Of a DNA stretch of 64,000 nucleotides, positions 25,684-32,407 are shown one piece after another (position 1 is the stretch's first letter; the number at the start of each line of letters is the position of its first letter). The notes under the pieces are model-generated. The model had not been told where the DNA came from. It worked only from the letters and a program-made list of their open reading frames with translations, and made no database searches. The position numbers and the translations under genes are program-made. This DNA comes from an uncultured Nitrospiraceae bacterium (lineage in GTDB: Bacteria > Nitrospirota > Thermodesulfovibrionia > Thermodesulfovibrionales > SM23-35), in NCBI GenBank assembly GCA_963727775.1, contig CAVSHB010000001.1, positions 1,120,001-1,184,000 of the forward strand, read 5' to 3'.

Positions 25684-25770
25684 TGGTACCGAAGGCCGGA
25701 CTTGAACCGGCACATGGTTGCCCACGAGGGATTTTAAGTCCCTTGCGTCTACCAATTCCGCCACTTCGGC
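25684..25770 (-). tRNA. tRNA-Leu(TAA)
   Basis: GCCGAAGTGGCGGAATTGGTAGACGCAAGGGACTTAAAATCCCT...GGTTCAAGTCCGGCCTTCGGTACCA; 87 nt with long variable arm and encoded CCA. Confidence 0.97.
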
Positions 25771-25779
25771 ACAGTTGAT
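25731..25779. repeat. att site overlapping the intact tRNA
   Basis: ATTTTAAGTCCCTTGCGTCTACCAATTCCGCCACTTCGGCACAGTTGAT, identical at 32331-32379. Confidence 0.92.
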
Positions 25780-25807
25780 ATTAAAGGATTTTCAGGCATC
25801 CAGTCAA
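25778..25807 (-). promoter_or_regulatory. Element-supplied sigma70-like promoter for tRNA-Leu
   Basis: TTGACT-N18-TAATAT, 7 nt before the tRNA 5' end; same geometry as the host promoter at 32378-32407. Confidence 0.65.
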
Positions 25808-25814
25808 CCTTCAT

Positions 25815-26810
25815 TTAGCCAAATGTAGCAGAATTGTAGCAGGTATCGAGTACCTCAACACTTGATCTCAAACTTTCAGGATAGTGATGTGCATATCTCA
25901 TGGTCATGGTAATAGTTTTATGACCAAGCAACTCTTTAACCTTATACAAATCTACTCCATTCTGAACAAGCCTTGTTGCAAAAGTGTGTCTCAGATCATG
26001 AAATCGAAAATCCTCTAACTTTGCTTTCTCAGCGGTCTTATCAAACGCATGCCTTAAACTACTGCCGGAGATCGGAAAAACTCTACCAGAGATATCCCTG
26101 ACGGTCATACTCTTAAAAAGATTAACAAGAGTGTTAGACATAGGGATGCTTCTCTTTTCACCGTTCTTTGACTTTACAATTCTAATGAGTCTATTCAACA
26201 GGTCAACATTTTGCCATCTCAGATCAAGAATCTCACCTCTTCGCATACCAGTGTGCAAGGCAACCATTAGTAACGATCTTAACCAATCGGGATTTGTCGC
26301 TTTCTCTAACAGAAGTTTTTCTTCTTCTATTGTGAGCCATCTGTCTCTTGCATTCCTGTTACCAACCGAAAAAGATAATCTGCTTACCGGATTATCCTTG
26401 CACCATTCCCACTCTTTGATAGCAACATTGAACATTCTTCTTAGTAAAGCCAATTCCTGATAAACTGTAGCAGGCTTAACCGTTTTAAGACGCATACTCC
26501 GATACTCAGCAATAGCCTTGGTCTTGATTTGATAAATCACATAGCCTGAAAAGAAATTGAGAAGTGTTTTCACAGTTCGTGAATCTCTTGAGTGAGCATG
26601 TTCTTTAAGGTATTTATCTGTCATGTCCTGAAATTGAATAGTCTTTGCTTTTGCTGTCTCAAAGTATCTGCCTTCTACAATATCAGTAAGAACTTTTGCA
26701 TAGAGTTTTTCAGCAAGCTTTTTGTTATCAGTCTTGAAGGATTCCTGAATCCTATTACCCTGATACGATATTCTAAACCAGAAGAATTTACCTCTACGGT
26801 AAAGTCCCAT
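25815..26810 (-). CDS. int: Tyrosine recombinase/integrase
   Basis: HTGMRRGEI, FHDLRHTFAT, LLGH...MTMRYAH catalytic motifs. Confidence 0.95.
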   Translation of the reverse strand: MGLYRRGKFFWFRISYQGNRIQESFKTDNKKLAEKLYAKVLTDIVEGRYFETAKAKTIQFQDMTDKYLKEHAHSRDSRTVKTLLNFFSGYVIYQIKTKAIAEYRSMRLKTVKPATVYQELALLRRMFNVAIKEWEWCKDNPVSRLSFSVGNRNARDRWLTIEEEKLLLEKATNPDWLRSLLMVALHTGMRRGEILDLRWQNVDLLNRLIRIVKSKNGEKRSIPMSNTLVNLFKSMTVRDISGRVFPISGSSLRHAFDKTAEKAKLEDFRFHDLRHTFATRLVQNGVDLYKVKELLGHKTITMTMRYAHHYPESLRSSVEVLDTCYNSATFG

Positions 26811-26815
26811 ATTTA

Positions 26816-27037
26816 CTAACCCCCTTTCCTGGGACTTCTGGCCTGGGTAAAAGGATTATAACTTGAGACAGCATCCTTTTTACAAGACTTTAGCCAGTTC
26901 ATGATATCCTCTATGTCAAACCTCAGACAGCCATTAAGCTTGATACACGGTATTTGCCCTAACTCCGCCCACTGATAAAGCGTACAAGGCTTCACGTTTA
27001 GAATTTCTGCTACTTCCTTGACTCCCGCAAGTTTCAC
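26816..27037 (-). CDS. Excisionase-like helix-turn-helix protein
   Basis: VKEVAEILNVKPCTLYQWAELGQIPCIKL...LRF; adjacent to int. Confidence 0.85.
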   Translation of the reverse strand: MKLAGVKEVAEILNVKPCTLYQWAELGQIPCIKLNGCLRFDIEDIMNWLKSCKKDAVSSYNPFTQARSPRKGG

Positions 27038-27136: not shown

Positions 27137-28318
27137 CTAATCATTGCCTTCTAAAGGTTCTTCTTTTTCATCGGCAAGATTCAGCAAGTCCGATACCGGC
27201 AGTTGATAATATTTGTTTCCCTCACTCATATCGAGAGAAAAATCATCAGGGACACCTTTATCCAGAAAACCTATTGTCTCATTGCCTTCCTTCGCTATTA
27301 AGGAAATCTTAACTTCTCGAAATGCTTTTAACGCTCTGTAATATGACCTTCTTGGCATCTGCTGTTTAACCCACTTTTGTCCTTGAGTTATGATTAGTAG
27401 ATAGACGTGATGGAATGCCCGACTCTGCTTATCAGAGAATCTTCTCATAAGATGCTGTAATACAGCTTCTGACTCCATGATTTTTGTTTCTGTTCCACAG
27501 AGAATCTGTGATACAACGCGTTTCATTTCTTCCTCGAAATGAAATATTTTCATTAAGTCTTTCAGGCGGACATACCCGGCAAATTTCTCTAAAAGGACGG
27601 TGTTTTCTCTTTCGTACTCTTTAACCACATAGGCAATTCGCTTTCTATGTTCTACCTCCACCCTTAATATTTTCATTGCCTCTTCGTAGAGCATTTGCGC
27701 AGTGGTACCATCGGCAATGTTCTTCATGTCATGTTTCTTGAACTCTTCACCCTTGCAATAAACCTTTAAGGTGTTATGTCTCGAAGCGAAGAATAGCCCC
27801 GTATCTTCATAACTATTCTTAAACCTCCGTGGATAATTTAATCTTTGAAGATAGTTGATATAATTCCTGACTTGAACTTCATTTTCTAAAACGTAATTTG
27901 CACAGGTATCAATTCGGAAACAATACCACTCTGTGGGGCATGGCAAACTGACTCCATACATTGTTTCAAATGCTTCTTTGACCTTATGCGCTGACGCATA
28001 AATAAGGGAAGGGTGAACAGATACCATATTGTGACCGAAAAGAATTTTAGGTACTGAATATTCAAAGGATATATGGGGAATGCCAGAAGCTTTATATGGG
28101 TGCCTTCTTTCTCTGTCATAAGTCCAGTACTCCTCTGTGACCTTGAAGAGCACATTATAATTCCATGAGGCAGACCTAAAATCTACTCTTGCATTGTTAT
28201 ATTCAAAAAGTACATCACCTTCTTGCATATCTATTCTTGTGGTAAGAACCGCATTCTCTAACAAACGGGTATACGCTTCTCTGTCTATGATCACCTTGAA
28301 ACCTACTGTATCGATCAT
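27137..28318 (-). CDS. Phage/plasmid rolling-circle replication protein (gene II/X, Rep_trans-like)
   Basis: MIDTV start, SVPKILFGHN, RIDTCANY, LKVYCKGEE, ILRVEVE motifs. Confidence 0.8.
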   Translation of the reverse strand: MIDTVGFKVIIDREAYTRLLENAVLTTRIDMQEGDVLFEYNNARVDFRSASWNYNVLFKVTEEYWTYDRERRHPYKASGIPHISFEYSVPKILFGHNMVSVHPSLIYASAHKVKEAFETMYGVSLPCPTEWYCFRIDTCANYVLENEVQVRNYINYLQRLNYPRRFKNSYEDTGLFFASRHNTLKVYCKGEEFKKHDMKNIADGTTAQMLYEEAMKILRVEVEHRKRIAYVVKEYERENTVLLEKFAGYVRLKDLMKIFHFEEEMKRVVSQILCGTETKIMESEAVLQHLMRRFSDKQSRAFHHVYLLIITQGQKWVKQQMPRRSYYRALKAFREVKISLIAKEGNETIGFLDKGVPDDFSLDMSEGNKYYQLPVSDLLNLADEKEEPLEGND

Positions 28319-28730
28319 AGAGTGTCACCCATGGCAGTTTCGTCCGGTGTTACTATACTACCGGACGTTCTATAACCAGCAATTACGCTTATACCGACAC
28401 AAGGGCAAACGCAAACCTTTCGGTTCTTGCGTTTGCCCTTGTAGTGCGTATCCAATCGTATTGCCGACGTGGCTTCCAACTGTTCAGCGATCCGCGAAAC
28501 AATTATGCGTCCTGTTGGTTTCGCAGCATCCACGATGAGCGTCTGAGGGTCATCTATCCACCGACGGGGACGACCGGGTTTTGCCTCTAAGTGAAGGTGA
28601 TCTATTCCCCTGCTATGACTTAGACTTGATTGGTGTTTCTTTTTGCTGTCCATAATAAATGATTTTAGACAACGGATAGGGCAGGACATAAGGACATGAA
28701 AAAAGATTTTGATGTCCCTATTTCAGAGGA

Positions 28731-29492
28731 TTATTGTTTCTCGTTGAATAGTGGCTTGATTTCTCTTTTAATTAACTTTTTGTACGTATCGGGAGAGAAC
28801 GGAACTTCTAAGCCGACATGATCGAGCAGTTCCATTTGTTGCTGATAGGTGAGCTTACTAAATACTGTTTCCCAAAATAATACCAATATAAGCTTTAATT
28901 TACCTTGCTTGTGTTTACTGATGGGCGGTTCACTTTTTATCGCATCCCCCAGTTTTTCAAAAAAAATGGAGTCACCAATAAGCATTTCTTGAAATATTAC
29001 TTCTCTAAACCATTCATGATCAAAAAGCGTTTTATCATATCTAAGAAGTTTGAATAGTGATTCTTCATTTCCTTCCCGTACTTCTTGATAAAGTTCTATT
29101 AGGGATTTCTTTTCAAGTAATTTGCAGATGAAGTTTAAAAATTGGAAAGTCGAAAAAATACGCGTCTCCGGTGTCACCCCTTTTTCCATTTCACCTTCAA
29201 ATATATCCTGTTCATTTATAGCAGTTGAGATATCAGGGATATTCTGGCTACTCAGGGAGGTAAATATATCCATGAATTGTGTGAGCTGTTCATCTTCAAT
29301 ATTAACCCTTTCCTCTTCACTGTAAAAAGGTTTAAAGCTTTTAATGGAACTATTTTTTATTTGTTCAATAAAGTCCTTGGATGCTTCTTCACCGGGGTCG
29401 TCGATATCTTCAAGACCTTCAAGAAAGCCTTTTATAATCGCCGCTAAGACAGGATCAACTTTTTGTTTCCGTGAGACCTGTTTTCTTTTCAT
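28731..29492 (-). CDS. Hypothetical protein of the integrative element
   Basis: 253-aa ORF co-oriented with rep; no family recognised. Confidence 0.7.
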   Translation of the reverse strand: MKRKQVSRKQKVDPVLAAIIKGFLEGLEDIDDPGEEASKDFIEQIKNSSIKSFKPFYSEEERVNIEDEQLTQFMDIFTSLSSQNIPDISTAINEQDIFEGEMEKGVTPETRIFSTFQFLNFICKLLEKKSLIELYQEVREGNEESLFKLLRYDKTLFDHEWFREVIFQEMLIGDSIFFEKLGDAIKSEPPISKHKQGKLKLILVLFWETVFSKLTYQQQMELLDHVGLEVPFSPDTYKKLIKREIKPLFNEKQ

Positions 29493-29692: not shown

Positions 29693-30649
29693 TCACCTAA
29701 AAATACTGTCTATCATGGATTGACAACAAGTAGGGAACTTTATCTTTACGGTATCAATAAGAGCGTCCAGACCAGTATTACGATCAATCGAAATTTCCGT
29801 TGTAATATATTTAGACCAAACTGTTTCAAAATATTTTGAATATGAGGTATACACATCAATTCCTCTTTCATAACGAGCTACTGGACCTAAATCATTACCT
29901 CTTTGACTTTCATAATAGGATAGAAATAAGTTACTATCATTGGGTAATTCCATACGGAAAAGTAATATCTCGTTATGAAATCGAAATGCAAAGCTATATC
30001 TATCATGTATTTTACATAATCTGTATGCCTTATATATATTCTCAATTATTTCTATTCTTAAATCATCTGATGTTTTATTTTCATGATAATTTTTCATTTG
30101 TGTTGATCTGTGATCTAAATTAATCTGATCCGTGGGATTCAAAAGCAACAAGAGTATTGAGAATGGTGTTCTGTCATTTGCTATATCTTCCCGTATTAAT
30201 CTTTTATTCAAAAGGTAATTTGCTGAAATGGACATGAATTTTAAAGTTGACGAAATTTTCATGTAAGAAACATAATGATCTTCAAATTGTTTTTCCGCTC
30301 CCCAATAAATATACGCAGGTGATAATAAATTTCTTGCTGATCTAAATTTATTAAATTCATCAGATACATTTTTGGTAACCATCGTAGAAACATCTTCAGA
30401 CAAAGTTTTTTCGATGGTTTTGTTTTGGATTTTTTGTATAAAAGCAGTCACAAATATAGCACTGCCTGTGGATAATAAGATTGAGGCGATAAATGTGTCT
30501 TTAAAAATTAAGTACCAAGATAAACCCAAAAAAATGATTAGCAAAGCAGAGATGGTAGCTCTTTGCCAATAAATTATTGTACGGCCATCTTTAAGCTCTT
30601 TTTTAGCTCCCTCATTTCTTTCTGGTAAAGTCGCATTATTATTTGACAT
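29693..30649 (-). CDS. 2-TM membrane protein with soluble C-terminal domain (DUF5919/PLD-like by pattern)
   Basis: Two hydrophobic helices at about aa 30-70; pattern ILLLLLNP...FRFH...FRMEL...LFLSYY...P...YSKYFETVW; starts 5 nt after the radical SAM stop. Confidence 0.7.
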   Translation of the reverse strand: MSNNNATLPERNEGAKKELKDGRTIIYWQRATISALLIIFLGLSWYLIFKDTFIASILLSTGSAIFVTAFIQKIQNKTIEKTLSEDVSTMVTKNVSDEFNKFRSARNLLSPAYIYWGAEKQFEDHYVSYMKISSTLKFMSISANYLLNKRLIREDIANDRTPFSILLLLLNPTDQINLDHRSTQMKNYHENKTSDDLRIEIIENIYKAYRLCKIHDRYSFAFRFHNEILLFRMELPNDSNLFLSYYESQRGNDLGPVARYERGIDVYTSYSKYFETVWSKYITTEISIDRNTGLDALIDTVKIKFPTCCQSMIDSIFR

Positions 30650-30654
30650 GAGTT

Positions 30655-31989
30655 CTATCCCTCCAAAAAAGGATTATACTTAACCGATCCCGTTTCTTTA
30701 GAAATGAAATTGTATGTTTTTTTTAGCAAATCTAACCCATTCGAGCCTAATGAGTCGGGCAAGCAAACTGGTTGAAGGTGATTATAATGATCATAATTAT
30801 TATCTATTATTTTCACACCTACTTTATTTGTATTCTCATAAAGTTTTGTTCCACGATGGGGGGTAAAAAAACCTAATAGGGGAATAATATTGGGAAAGGA
30901 GCAAAGTTTAATGATAAATAAAGCCTTGCTATCGAGGCTTTCAAGTGTTTCGCCAGGAGTTCCTAAAATAAAATTCAGATTAATTCTAAATCCCAAATCT
31001 GTTGCATGTTCCAAAATATTGTCAATGTTCTCTAGAGCATGTAAGATACCAAATTTATTCAATGTCTTCAATTGTTGAGCATCGTTCGATTCAATTCCGA
31101 AACTCAATTCTCTGAAGCCTGCTTTATGCATAACTTCAAGATATTCATAATCGATCAAATCAATTCTTGTTTTACCTCCAAAATTAACCGGGAATTTCTC
31201 ATGTGATAAAGCTTCACAAAGTTTTTTAAAATAGACTTTATCAAGAGATAATGTGTCATCTCCAAATGAGATTTGTGATGGCGAAAATAGATTTACAATT
31301 GTTTCAATTTCTTTTAATACACGTTCACTCGAACATTTCCGATGTTTTTGCCCCCAGTGTGAATTGAGAGTACAAAAGTCACAACTATAACTGCATCCCC
31401 TGCTTGCAAAAACATAATAACGAGTCTCGTATTTTTTATATATGTTGATAGGGATTCTATCATATAACGTTTGGGGTAGATCATTTAGGTCTTGAATAAG
31501 ATCTCTGTGAGGATTTGATATGATATTTCCATTACTTCTGAAAGATATGCCTTTGACTGTCTCGTAGTTGTTACCTGTTTTTATTTTTTTTAATACTTCA
31601 ACAAAAGATCGTTCTCCTTCTCCTCTAAAAACAATGTCAATAAACTGAAAGTTCTTTAATACCCACTGATCATTAGCTGCTGGGAAAAGGCCGCCAAGCA
31701 TAGTAATACAACTTTTTTCTTTGAAAAATTTTAAAATATTTAAAGCATTGTTAAAGTTACATGAAACTGCTGTACTGAGAACTATGTCAGGTCTATATTT
31801 GTTGAAAATTGAGTCAAATGAATTACTTGTTCTTTCAACATGATCTATTTCTAACGAATGGTAAAAAAAGTCAACGTCGTCTAAGCGAGGTTTAGCGTAG
31901 GAATAAAGCGCTAAAAAAGTCATTGGTAAGGACATGTTTATCCTTACAGGATTGTTAACCCTTGGTTCTACGAAAAGTACTTTTATCAT
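30655..31989 (-). CDS. B12-binding-domain radical SAM protein
   Basis: SRGCSYSCDFC (CxxxCxxC); N-terminal cobalamin-binding-like domain (MLGG...DIVFRGEGE); SFGIES, FILGTPGET. Confidence 0.92.
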   Translation of the reverse strand: MIKVLFVEPRVNNPVRINMSLPMTFLALYSYAKPRLDDVDFFYHSLEIDHVERTSNSFDSIFNKYRPDIVLSTAVSCNFNNALNILKFFKEKSCITMLGGLFPAANDQWVLKNFQFIDIVFRGEGERSFVEVLKKIKTGNNYETVKGISFRSNGNIISNPHRDLIQDLNDLPQTLYDRIPINIYKKYETRYYVFASRGCSYSCDFCTLNSHWGQKHRKCSSERVLKEIETIVNLFSPSQISFGDDTLSLDKVYFKKLCEALSHEKFPVNFGGKTRIDLIDYEYLEVMHKAGFRELSFGIESNDAQQLKTLNKFGILHALENIDNILEHATDLGFRINLNFILGTPGETLESLDSKALFIIKLCSFPNIIPLLGFFTPHRGTKLYENTNKVGVKIIDNNYDHYNHLQPVCLPDSLGSNGLDLLKKTYNFISKETGSVKYNPFLEG

Positions 31990-32330
31990 TCATTCCTTAA
32001 TGATGGTGCGATTTTGTTATACGAACACTAACTTCACTTTTTGTTCGGATTTGTGATGCTATCCGAATCCGTTTGGGATGTTTCCCTATATAGATTCCTG
32101 TTTGTAATCTACAATATTTTGGAACTTTTGGGAAGTGCGACATTCAGGAAGTAGCACCCGCATTTTTACTGTAGCAAAAAATGTAGCAGAATTGTAGCAG
32201 AAGGCATCCCAATTTTACATAATATCCCGAATATACCTGAAAGAACATAATATAAAATTAGTCCATATAATCAGTAAGTTAAGCTAAAACCCAAGCCAGA
32301 AGCCAACCATCTAAAATGTGCCAAAAAACA

Positions 32331-32379
32331 ATTTTAAGTCCCTTGCGTCTACCAATTCCGCCACTTCGGCACAGTTGAT
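32331..32379 (-). repeat. att site: duplicated 5' 40 nt of tRNA-Leu plus 9 nt of leader
   Basis: Identical to 25731-25779; identity ends just past the anticodon loop. Confidence 0.92.
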
Positions 32380-32407
32380 TTTAAACGATTGTCCGTTGTT
32401 TGGTCAA
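32378..32407 (-). promoter_or_regulatory. Original host tRNA-Leu promoter, now pointing into the element
   Basis: TTGACC-N18-TAAAAT, 7 nt before the tRNA fragment. Confidence 0.65.

Follow-up and report, generated by a model that had tools for sequence, protein, structure and literature searches.

A conserved, mobile gene pair of a cobalamin-type radical SAM enzyme and a two-helix pseudo-PLD membrane protein: a possible anti-phage signalling system

Introduction

What does a small integrative element gain by carrying a radical SAM enzyme together with a two-helix (2TM) membrane protein? This question is raised by two neighbouring genes in a 64,000-nt stretch of an uncultured Nitrospiraceae genome (hereafter the window). 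An initial annotation, made from the sequence alone, proposed that the enzyme makes a modified nucleotide-like signal that is read by the membrane protein in a new defence or signalling system. Here, we describe the element and both proteins, examine whether the pair recurs elsewhere, and weigh this proposal against other readings and against known systems.

Results

An AT-rich gene pair as cargo of a tRNA-Leu integrative element

The two open reading frames (ORFs) lie on the minus strand where they had been annotated, the enzyme gene first and the membrane protein gene second, with a 5-nt gap between them (Table 1). A GGAGG Shine-Dalgarno-like stretch is located where the enzyme gene ends, within its final codons, both in the window and in a second locus, L001. 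The pair is AT-rich compared to the backbone, as had been noticed: its GC content is 0.328 (enzyme) and 0.306 (membrane protein gene), whereas the genome stands at 0.45 and int and rep at 0.38-0.39. Low GC is seen in all three loci with DNA (window, L001 and L002). No RNA or riboswitch common to the regions upstream of the pair was found.

The placement of the pair as cargo at the distal end of an int/xis/rep element also holds. The element measures 6.66 kb, is integrated in tRNA-Leu(TAA) and is bounded by a 63-bp repeat (95% identity, 49-bp exact core). It has the hallmarks of a tRNA-targeting integrative element, namely a tyrosine integrase, an excisionase and direct repeats by which the target gene is restored. 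The promoter-like box preceding the displaced tRNA half is likely the original host tRNA promoter, now directed into the cargo pair, and the box near the intact tRNA would be a replacement brought by the element; the argument is one of position, with promoter-like boxes in the region totaling 21 against 21.7 expected by chance. The non-coding end of the element is likely attachment-arm DNA, and the 124-aa ORF may not be a gene. The cargo slot is exchangeable. Sister elements hold restriction-modification (RM) and similar cargo there, and defence-type cargo was located within the bounds of three of the five sister elements read. Type II RM genes near a further locus (L015) were not counted as cargo, as they lie just beyond the distal repeat of that element.

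Table 1. Features of the integrative element and its cargo (positions in the window)
Feature	Position	Strand	Remarks
Intact tRNA-Leu(TAA) (25684-25770) and proximal attachment repeat (25731-25793)	25684..25793	-	
Promoter-like box TTGACT-18-TAATAT	25778..25807	-	Same distance from intact tRNA as host box
Tyrosine integrase	25815..26810	-	
Excisionase-like HTH_17 protein	26816..27037	-	
Replication initiator, G2P / gene II-X type	27137..28318	-	Phage_CRI, TIGR01629
124-aa ORF	28315..28689	-	No family match; host-like GC of 0.48
253-aa ORF, element backbone	28731..29492	-	Homologue in tRNA-SeC sister element
Membrane protein, 318 aa: two TM helices, long helix, pseudo-PLD domain	29693..30649	-	ORF, structure model
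Radical SAM enzyme with N-terminal cobalamin-binding-type domain, 444 aa	30655..31989	-	CX3CXFC at 199-206; unnamed subfamily
Non-coding element end	32182..32341	.	Shared with two sister elements of this genome (73-82% identity)
Distal attachment repeat: displaced 5' half of tRNA-Leu(TAA) and upstream bases	32331..32393	-	
Promoter-like box TTGACC-18-TAAAAT, precedes displaced tRNA half	32378..32407	-	Positional argument

The enzyme belongs to an unnamed cobalamin-type radical SAM subfamily

The annotated CxxxCxxC motif is present as C199-x3-C203-x-F205-C206. The three cysteines are conserved in 17 out of 17 aligned rows covering them, with F or Y at position 205, and the Radical_SAM model PF04055 matches at E 4e-15 (56.7 bits, cut-off 29.5). 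The cobalamin-binding-like N-terminus is recovered as well: PF02310 matches residues 56-132 (E 5e-6) with 26.7 bits, under its curated cut-off of 32.1, a B12-binding domain is listed for 14 of 18 enzyme matches, and the enzyme profile aligns with TokK, OxsB and CysS through their N-terminal cobalamin-type domain. Judged by the layout of this Rossmann domain, the protein is probably a class 1 cobalamin-dependent radical SAM enzyme. A cobalamin riboswitch was found in the host genome; CobS was looked for in the host and not found.

Together with 17 relatives (48-74% identical), the enzyme forms a tight subfamily. Cys77 aligns with W76 of TokK, the residue under the cobalt, and this column holds C in 12, S in two and T in one of 15 sequences. 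The Trp under the cobalt (loop after strand 3) that marks methylases of the TokK/CysS type is absent. Membership in the named B12 radical SAM families (ApyD, BchE, HpnJ, PhpK, KedN5 and others) was rejected: the best score is 148 bits against cut-offs of 481-750, and none among the 25 NCBIfam matches listed passes its curated cut-off. Among named enzymes, the closest have peptides, tetrapyrroles, hopanoids or aminoglycosides as substrates, and none of them nucleotides. Eight solved structures match, the best being AprD4 (E 4e-21), named a diol dehydratase by NCBIfam, with OxsB (E 2e-14) among them. PADLOC returned a single match for the enzyme, PDC-M51A (E 7e-13), whose 46 bits are a family-level score, and no match to its viperin (pVip) models. 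The enzyme has no evident phage-sensing domain.

The membrane protein carries a PLD-like domain without an HKD motif

The two annotated N-terminal TM helices correspond to hydrophobic segments at about residues 31-49 and 53-71. They are followed by a long helix up to residue 109, a pseudo-PLD domain (about 110-290) and a tail of two short helices, as seen in a structure model with a pLDDT of 92.8. This model replaced an earlier one built from three sequences (pLDDT 56.8), for which the fold search gave no match at E ≤ 0.001. Fold prediction and fold searches (Foldseek, VIA) now place the 318-aa protein in the PLD superfamily. With VIA, the best match is TrmB (2f5t; Z 12.6, rmsd 2.8 over 130 residues), followed by 21 further PLD superfamily rows with Z 8.3-12.4, while the top Foldseek rows are TrmBL2, FAM83, F13, SauUSI and NucT. 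PDB sequence searches with the membrane protein family gave nothing meaningful, and no PADLOC model matched the protein. The weak Pfam matches to reticulon, GDT1 and others reflect the TM helices only.

The model, the fold searches and the alignment column counts bear out the annotation of a PLD-like fold lacking HKD. The motif strand reads L230-F-R232-M-E234, in a register (H = 230, K = 232) that was set by the motif pattern and not by residue-level superposition, and HxKxxxxD is not present. Position 230 is hydrophobic here and in the residues listed, which cover 21 of 24 members. R232 occupies the Lys position in 24/24 close and 126/131 wider members, and E234 is also invariant. The HxKxxxxD pattern occurs anywhere in one of 24 close and four of 131 wider members, away from this strand in the cases read, and a profile comparison with a PLD from the window yielded no usable HKD alignment. 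An intact HKD enzyme is rejected because the catalytic His position is hydrophobic and the pattern is missing, although H225, found in 23 of 24 members, could be a shifted catalytic residue. The annotated likeness to DUF5919 gives a mixed picture. PF19319 does not match the protein of the window, nor four relatives scanned singly, but it matches eight of 131 aligned relatives at E ≤ 0.01 (best 1.4e-5), and the Atlas neighbours are DUF5919 clusters (15-31% of members, score 0.94). No paper naming DUF5919 was found.

The family comprises 343 representatives at E ≤ 0.001, some of them with other domains. One relative (P0046) carries an XRE HTH in place of the TM part, a paired member (P0037) has a Nudix domain added to the TM part, and a distant member (L006) is fused to a histidine-kinase-like module, as read by eye. 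Such fusions occupy slots typical of ligand sensors, and the Nudix domain points to nucleotides.

The pair recurs in unrelated phyla

The initial annotation made its proposal dependent on conserved adjacency, which was indeed observed. The pair was read in two independent loci from Latescibacterota and Omnitrophota (L001 and L002), in the same order and with the same tight coupling (a 2-nt gap in L001, a 13-nt overlap in L002) and with partners matching the membrane protein of the window at E 1e-19 and 2e-27. Five more pairs are inferred from partners that share both their source and the size of the longest contig; none of 200,000 draws in a null test gave at least four such matches. The total is thus eight pairs, three resting on DNA and five on source-and-length matches. 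These data support the view that both genes form a unit that is conserved between unrelated phyla.

A matched partner is missing for eight of 17 enzyme relatives with room for one, and a matched enzyme for eight of 13 membrane protein relatives on sufficiently long contigs; as both lists come from differently clustered libraries, a missing match does not equal absence. The latter eight include all five members on sufficiently long contigs of a seven-member subclade (SH-aLRT 94). Distant 2TM-pseudo-PLD genes in the phylum of the host lack such an enzyme in all five loci read. The pair is patchily spread, as it was found in 0/60 relatives, 0/300 and 0/150 further genomes, and there were no close matches in 400. 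Viral contigs held no relatives of the enzyme alignment, the A4 alignment, P0042, P0045 or P0047, and plasmids and phages held none of P0001, P0047 or P0043. The only plasmid matches were B12 radical SAM genes of a generic kind, with less than 30% identity, and a metagenome scan gave nothing beyond a duplicate of L001.

The enzyme is far more conserved (46-72% identity) than the membrane protein (22-46%), and the two partner trees disagree (Spearman -0.06). An AU test, with clades picked after the identity tables had been seen, rejects the grouping of the window with c2911 in the membrane protein tree (p 2e-8), whereas the same two form a 96/92 clade in the enzyme tree. Such incongruent trees fit a diffusible link between the partners better than a fixed complex.

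In agreement with the initial annotation, no biosynthetic cluster accompanies the pair in the three loci read. Glycosyltransferases, acyltransferases, transporters and other pathway genes are all missing beside it. Two findings had been named beforehand as speaking against the proposal, a lack of co-occurrence elsewhere and homologues in glycan or antibiotic clusters, and neither was encountered in the loci read. The expected defence-gene neighbourhood was seen in part: L002 adjoins an OLD/GajA-like gene, but L001 lies among housekeeping-like genes on a 4.8-kb contig without any defence or mobility gene. The defence context is suggestive but thin.

Discussion

A tentative signal-and-effector model

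We propose, at slightly less than an even chance, that the pair is a conserved mobile signal-and-effector anti-phage system in which an enzyme-made modified nucleotide is read by a membrane effector. Its substrate would be a nucleotide of the cell, altered by the cobalamin-type radical chemistry of the enzyme, for which OxsB, acting on dAMP/dADP/dATP, is a precedent. The pseudo-PLD domain is predicted to bind this product in the former active-site cleft (R232, E234, H225, E227, R181 and Q184), and binding would determine whether the two TM helices are harmless or damage the membrane, possibly with oligomerisation via the long helix. Regarding polarity, we lean slightly towards a guard, as in Panoptes: the product, supplied steadily, would keep the effector inactive, and infection would release it by depleting the product. 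This leaning is based on the enzyme having no evident phage-sensing domain and on the pair facing an apparent tRNA promoter. Infection-triggered activation, as in CBASS, would be nearly as probable.

A broader claim is less probable than this model: a new class of immune messenger, a B12-radical nucleotide (C-methylated or ring-rearranged), read by a dead-PLD receptor that is swappable between membrane effectors, transcription factors and kinases. Phage enzymes and sponges directed against cyclic nucleotides would not recognise such a messenger. If true, B12 radical SAM would be a new chemistry among the writers of bacterial immune signals and the pseudo-PLD (DUF5919-like) domain a new receptor fold among the readers, giving a function to a wide unnamed family. 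Even without a defence role, the locus offers an uncharacterised B12 radical SAM subfamily with Cys under the cobalt, in a two-gene context small enough for direct substrate finding.

Alternative readings

Of the alternatives, a non-defence accessory module survives best, yet we consider it rather improbable. The enzyme would alter, by methylation or in another way, a membrane lipid, an envelope glycan, a cofactor or a toxic small molecule, with its partner as sensor or anchor. HpnJ, BchE, hopanoid and lipid enzymes are among its best NCBIfam matches, all with scores far below cut-off, and the setting of L001, the HTH-fused relative (suggesting ordinary ligand-controlled regulation) and the distant 2TM-pseudo-PLD proteins that stand alone, or in one case fused to a kinase-like module, fit this reading. 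The lack of pathway genes beside the pair in the three loci read does not, and the patchy spread, the low GC and the rapid change of the partner would be more expected of conflict genes.

Alternatively, the enzyme product could itself block phage polymerases, as viperin or oxetanocin products would, while the membrane protein regulates, buffers or exports it. OxsB is a precedent, since it performs B12 radical SAM chemistry on dAMP/dADP/dATP towards an antiviral analogue and needs its partner OxsA, according to the available part of PMC13331322. Ophion, another radical SAM-based defence for which nucleotide products are proposed (10.1101/2025.09.30.679545, as far as accessible), and the Nudix domain of P0037 point the same way. 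However, the OxsB and AprD4 matches are family-level only, no viperin model matched, and the pair has neither a kinase nor an HD phosphohydrolase gene beside it. Every paired locus has a 2TM partner, for which an effector role is the simpler reading, and we assign a low probability to direct inhibition.

Comparably doubtful is a toxin-antitoxin or maturation pair, in which the membrane protein is bound by the enzyme and silenced or matured through a covalent modification, with the pseudo-PLD domain as a protein-docking scaffold. The translational coupling agrees with this, as do the FAM83 pseudo-PLD domains among the fold matches, which are protein-binding scaffolds. HXS radical SAM enzymes also mature a protein effector (available text of PMC13128918). 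The incongruent trees are hard to square with one protein substrate, however, as 72%-identical enzymes occur with 24%-identical partners.

That two unrelated cargo genes were acquired separately has next to no probability and is considered refuted: some members of each family lack a matched partner, but order and tight coupling are conserved in two independent loci of other, unrelated phyla, next to the five source-and-length matches.

Comparison with known systems

No described system with this pairing was matched in the libraries and literature searched, as the initial annotation had expected, and no paper on the two-gene pair was found there. Among radical SAM enzymes in phage defence, prokaryotic viperins, Ophion (10.1101/2025.09.30.679545) and HXS (PMC13128918) resemble the pair, but a cobalamin domain with a 2TM pseudo-PLD partner is not described in the accessible parts of these reports. 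In Ophion, the radical SAM gene is accompanied by genes for PHP and PRTase, which are found neither in the element nor in L001 and L002. HXS comprises two radical SAM enzymes together with HxsA and HxsD, and its effector is a secreted HxS-repeat protein; the three loci hold one radical SAM gene each.

The minimal two-gene unit with cobalamin and radical SAM domains and a nucleotide-substrate precedent recalls OxsB/OxsA (oxetanocin A) and AlsB, again within the available part of PMC13331322. The similarity to OxsB is at the family level, at 444 aa here versus 744 aa. Under the cobalt lies Cys77 here, whereas in OxsB this role falls to Asn186, which is placed two positions earlier. OxsA is an HD phosphohydrolase, in contrast to the membrane pseudo-PLD partner here.

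The C-terminal domain of TrmB/TrmBL2 (2f5t, 3qph, 5bpd) likewise has a long coiled-coil helix followed by a PLD-like subdomain that is non-catalytic, as far as the available text of PMC4158304 describes it. One relative of the membrane protein carries an HTH, as TrmB does, while the protein of the window has TM helices instead. The TrmB alignment covers residues 110-247 only, whereas six of the seven sugar-contacting residues of TrmB are located at 305-326, in a beta-barrel subdomain outside the match. TrmB thus gives no ligand site here, and sugar binding of its type is rejected. An inactive HKD domain fused to TIR has been reported in predicted immune systems (accessible part of 10.64898/2026.10.19.760177).

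In its overall layout, the pair resembles CBASS, Pycsar, Thoeris and Panoptes: the gene of an enzyme is coupled to that of a 2TM protein whose soluble domain is non-catalytic. Their synthases (CD-NTase, PycC, TIR and mCpol) have no PADLOC, Pfam or NCBIfam match in the element. As described in the available part of PMC12657218, Panoptes OptS/OptE and the 2TM-CARF and 2TM-SAVED effectors follow this architecture with a single enzyme, and the pair likewise shares an enzyme-first two-gene operon with Panoptes and the CBASS 2TM effectors (Cap15 S-2TM-beta, 2TM-SAVED, 2TM-CARF). It differs in its enzyme, which is a cobalamin-type radical SAM enzyme and not a polymerase or cyclase, and in its soluble domain, a pseudo-PLD fold in place of a beta-barrel, SAVED or CARF domain.

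The cargo pair and its element

Both ORFs reported in the initial annotation were recovered on the minus strand, separated by the expected 5 nt, and both are AT-rich relative to the host, as had been claimed (GC content of 0.33 for the enzyme gene and 0.31 for the membrane-protein gene vs. 0.45 for the genome). A GGAGG ribosome-site-like stretch for the membrane-protein gene lies within the final codons of the enzyme gene, as it does in L001, a Latescibacterota MAG locus. The pair makes up the distal end of a 6.66-kb element whose other genes encode an integrase, an excisionase and a G2P-type Rep, along with two ORFs of unknown function, which agrees with the proposed position in a small int/xis/rep element. 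The element is bordered by a 63-bp repeat (95% identity, 49-bp exact core) corresponding to the 5' half of tRNA-Leu(TAA).

Coordinates of the cargo genes and of additional features (G000 is the host genome)
Feature	Position	Strand	Description
Enzyme ORF, 444 aa	30655-31989	minus	ORF at the place given in the initial annotation
Membrane-protein ORF, 318 aa	29693-30649	minus	ORF at the place given in the initial annotation
tRNA-Leu regions with repeats and promoter-like boxes	window 25684-25807 and 32331-32407		5' half of tRNA duplicated by element
tRNA-SeC sister element	L013 (G000:C3:283647-290751)		5'-type repeat, 81 bp, 100%
Sister-element cargo	L014:2799-4501 (G000:C3:119295-121000)		209-aa ORF, class III nucleotide cyclase-like by eye, and PDC-S15-matching FRG protein
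Sister-element cargo	L017:5888-9760 (G000:C1:897387-901262)		C5 methylase, HD-CE and ORC-CDC6-like genes; Prim-Pol element at tRNA-Glu
Attachment repeats of L017 element	907115 and 909159		Tandem
tRNA-Cys calls	G000:C1:1561763-1561857 and 1566765-1566859		95 bp each, 5 kb apart
B12 radical SAM-like ORF (by eye)	L039:22-1239 (G142:C2)		In glycan gene cluster, ~7 kb from related Rep
Distant 2TM-pseudo-PLD protein	L006:628-2262 (G417:C54)		Fused to apparent histidine kinase

The element lies upstream of the intact tRNA gene, the reverse of the usual, 3'-type arrangement of tRNA integration. It supplies a putative promoter resembling that of the host (TTGAC-18-TAAwAT) and just as far from where the tRNA begins, and the probable host box is now directed at the cargo genes. 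Because the tRNA-SeC sister element and integrases upstream of tRNA-Leu in two other genomes (G044 and G003; loci L033 and L034) show a like arrangement, integration of the 5' type may be characteristic of one clade of integrases.

The cargo slot is exchangeable: the tRNA-SeC element matches the window element in its integrase (64%), its excisionase, the two borders of the slot and the family of the 253-aa ORF, and carries two other unknown ORFs in the slot instead of the cargo pair. Five of six sister integrase elements were read, all but one on C4, and three of the five contain defence-type genes within their bounds: an FRG protein (PDC-S15 match, 2e-77), a BglII-type nuclease with an MT-A70 methylase, and the methylase cargo of L017. 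The remaining two are the SeC element and one in which type II RM genes lie just beyond the distal repeat. The 209-aa ORF of L014 had no Pfam match at 0.001, and the L014 cargo is a possible cyclase-FRG defence pair. The paired tRNA-Cys calls may delimit a further small element; a normal tRNA-Cys is also present on C3. The cargo pair was not seen on inspection by eye of eight related regions of other genomes.

Conservation of the pairing

Scanning 185,579 genomes with a pattern retrieved two loci, both of which carry these two genes in the window's order, namely L001 (2-nt gap) and L002 of an Omnitrophota MAG (13-nt overlap); a metagenome hit duplicates L001. In addition, 21 further membrane proteins were compared with 19 enzyme entries by source and size of the longest contig, yielding five exact matches, eight proteins on contigs too short for both genes and eight with room but unmatched. 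A null model gave at least four such matches in 0 of 200,000 draws. Conserved adjacency, suggested earlier as a check, is thus observed in three loci (window, L001 and L002) and inferred in five more.

Paired members are scattered across most of the membrane-family tree. In a seven-member subclade (SH-aLRT 94), none of the five members with room has a matched enzyme, so the domain may serve another or more diverged enzyme there. The family is rare: it was absent from samples, with partly incomplete genomes, of 60 relatives (0/60) and of further genomes around the two MAGs (0/300 and 0/150), and no close match was found among 400 sampled genomes of the phylum.

The radical SAM enzyme

The Radical_SAM domain of the enzyme scores above cut-off. 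For its cobalamin-type N-terminus, B12-binding is listed for 14 of the 18 hits of the family search and is weak in the window's own protein. Against NCBIfam, the enzyme falls far below the curated cut-off for all 25 families among the matches listed. Among 4372 candidates, a word-limited search returned 18 hits at E ≤ 1e-40, the enzyme's own cluster and 17 relatives; as the relatives are 48-74% identical and the weakest lies at 3e-90, this is a separate subfamily.

Solved relatives, similar at family level, are AprD4, 9ccb, TokK, OxsB and CysS. In TokK, Trp76 lies under the cobalt; the matching position in the enzyme is Cys77 (subfamily column: C12, S2, T1; n = 15), and TokK-type methylation therefore cannot be assumed. 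Cobalamin radical SAM enzymes include methylases and non-methylases, and OxsB substrates are dAMP, dADP and dATP (PMC13331322). The host has a cobalamin riboswitch and three further genes resembling B12 radical SAM enzymes, and no CobS match was found in its genome, which fits B12 uptake.

The membrane protein

A profile built from five sequences and searched against 1.84 billion representatives yielded 24 proteins at E ≤ 1e-30; the next one lies at 1e-17, and the total at E ≤ 0.001 is 343. The structure model, built from 131 sequences (pLDDT 92.8, pTM 0.72), displays helices 12-49 and 52-109 and then an alpha/beta domain. The suggested fold searches concur on the PLD superfamily, with TrmB 2f5t first (Z 12.6, rmsd 2.8, 130 aligned), followed by TrmBL2, SauUSI, FAM83, PLD, NucT and Nuc. 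The predicted PLD-like fold without HKD thus holds: the HxK site, in a register inferred from the motif, reads L230-F-R232. R232 is conserved in 24/24 close and 126/131 wider members, and E234, H225, E227, R181 and Q184 are near-invariant in the close clade. We read this site as a dead active site that has been retained to bind a ligand carrying phosphate; H225 could still be catalytic at a shifted position. The TrmB sugar site lies mostly beyond the matched part.

Architecture variants include a Nudix addition (P0037), and an XRE HTH in place of the TM part (P0046). The other three variants (P0031, P0077, P0168) show extra TM helices, a 250-aa tail (no Pfam hit, cupin-like by eye) and three tandem domain copies. 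A distant 2TM-pseudo-PLD group is present in 5 of 400 genomes of the host's phylum (E 4e-5 to 8e-4, one of them reaching 91.5% by hhalign), with no enzyme of the pair's type alongside; four of these genomes have stand-alone proteins.

Proposed function

At slightly below even chance, we favor a scheme in which the enzyme would make a modified nucleotide that a membrane effector would read, every biochemical step in it being putative. We lean slightly towards a Panoptes-like guard, because the enzyme shows no sensor domain and the pair faces a likely tRNA promoter.

A role in non-defence metabolism is unlikely. No pathway genes flank the pair in the window, L001 or L002, which upholds the reported absence of biosynthetic cluster genes.

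L001, starting 290 bp before the enzyme, holds RraA-like and unknown genes; L002 has an AAA/OLD-TOPRIM gene upstream (Old 4e-12, GajA 3e-11) and an IS200-like transposase downstream. A defence neighbour was found at L002 and not at L001, and one such neighbour in two outside loci is suggestive only. GC content of the pair is 0.35 in L001 (0.48 for the rest) and 0.34 in L002.

Somewhat less probable than non-defence metabolism is a direct antiviral analogue made by the enzyme.

Direct modification of the partner by the enzyme is about as improbable. Across eight pairs, five of them indirect, enzyme identities (46-72%) and membrane-protein identities (22-46%) are uncorrelated (Spearman -0.06, permutation p 0.64). 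The window enzyme forms a clade with that of contig c2911 (support 96/92), whereas grouping their membrane proteins is rejected (AU test, p 2e-8), as is the TM clade L001+L002+c2911 in the enzyme tree (p 0.002); the groups were picked after the identities had been seen. Partners therefore appear exchanged within the family, which is expected if a shared small molecule links the two proteins. Chance adjacency of genes that recur in one order is very improbable.

In agreement with the initial annotation, no paper on this pair was found in the literature searched, and none there names DUF5919. The layout of an enzyme with a 2TM protein is of a known kind; if true, the chemistry of the writer would be new, and so would the fold of the reader.
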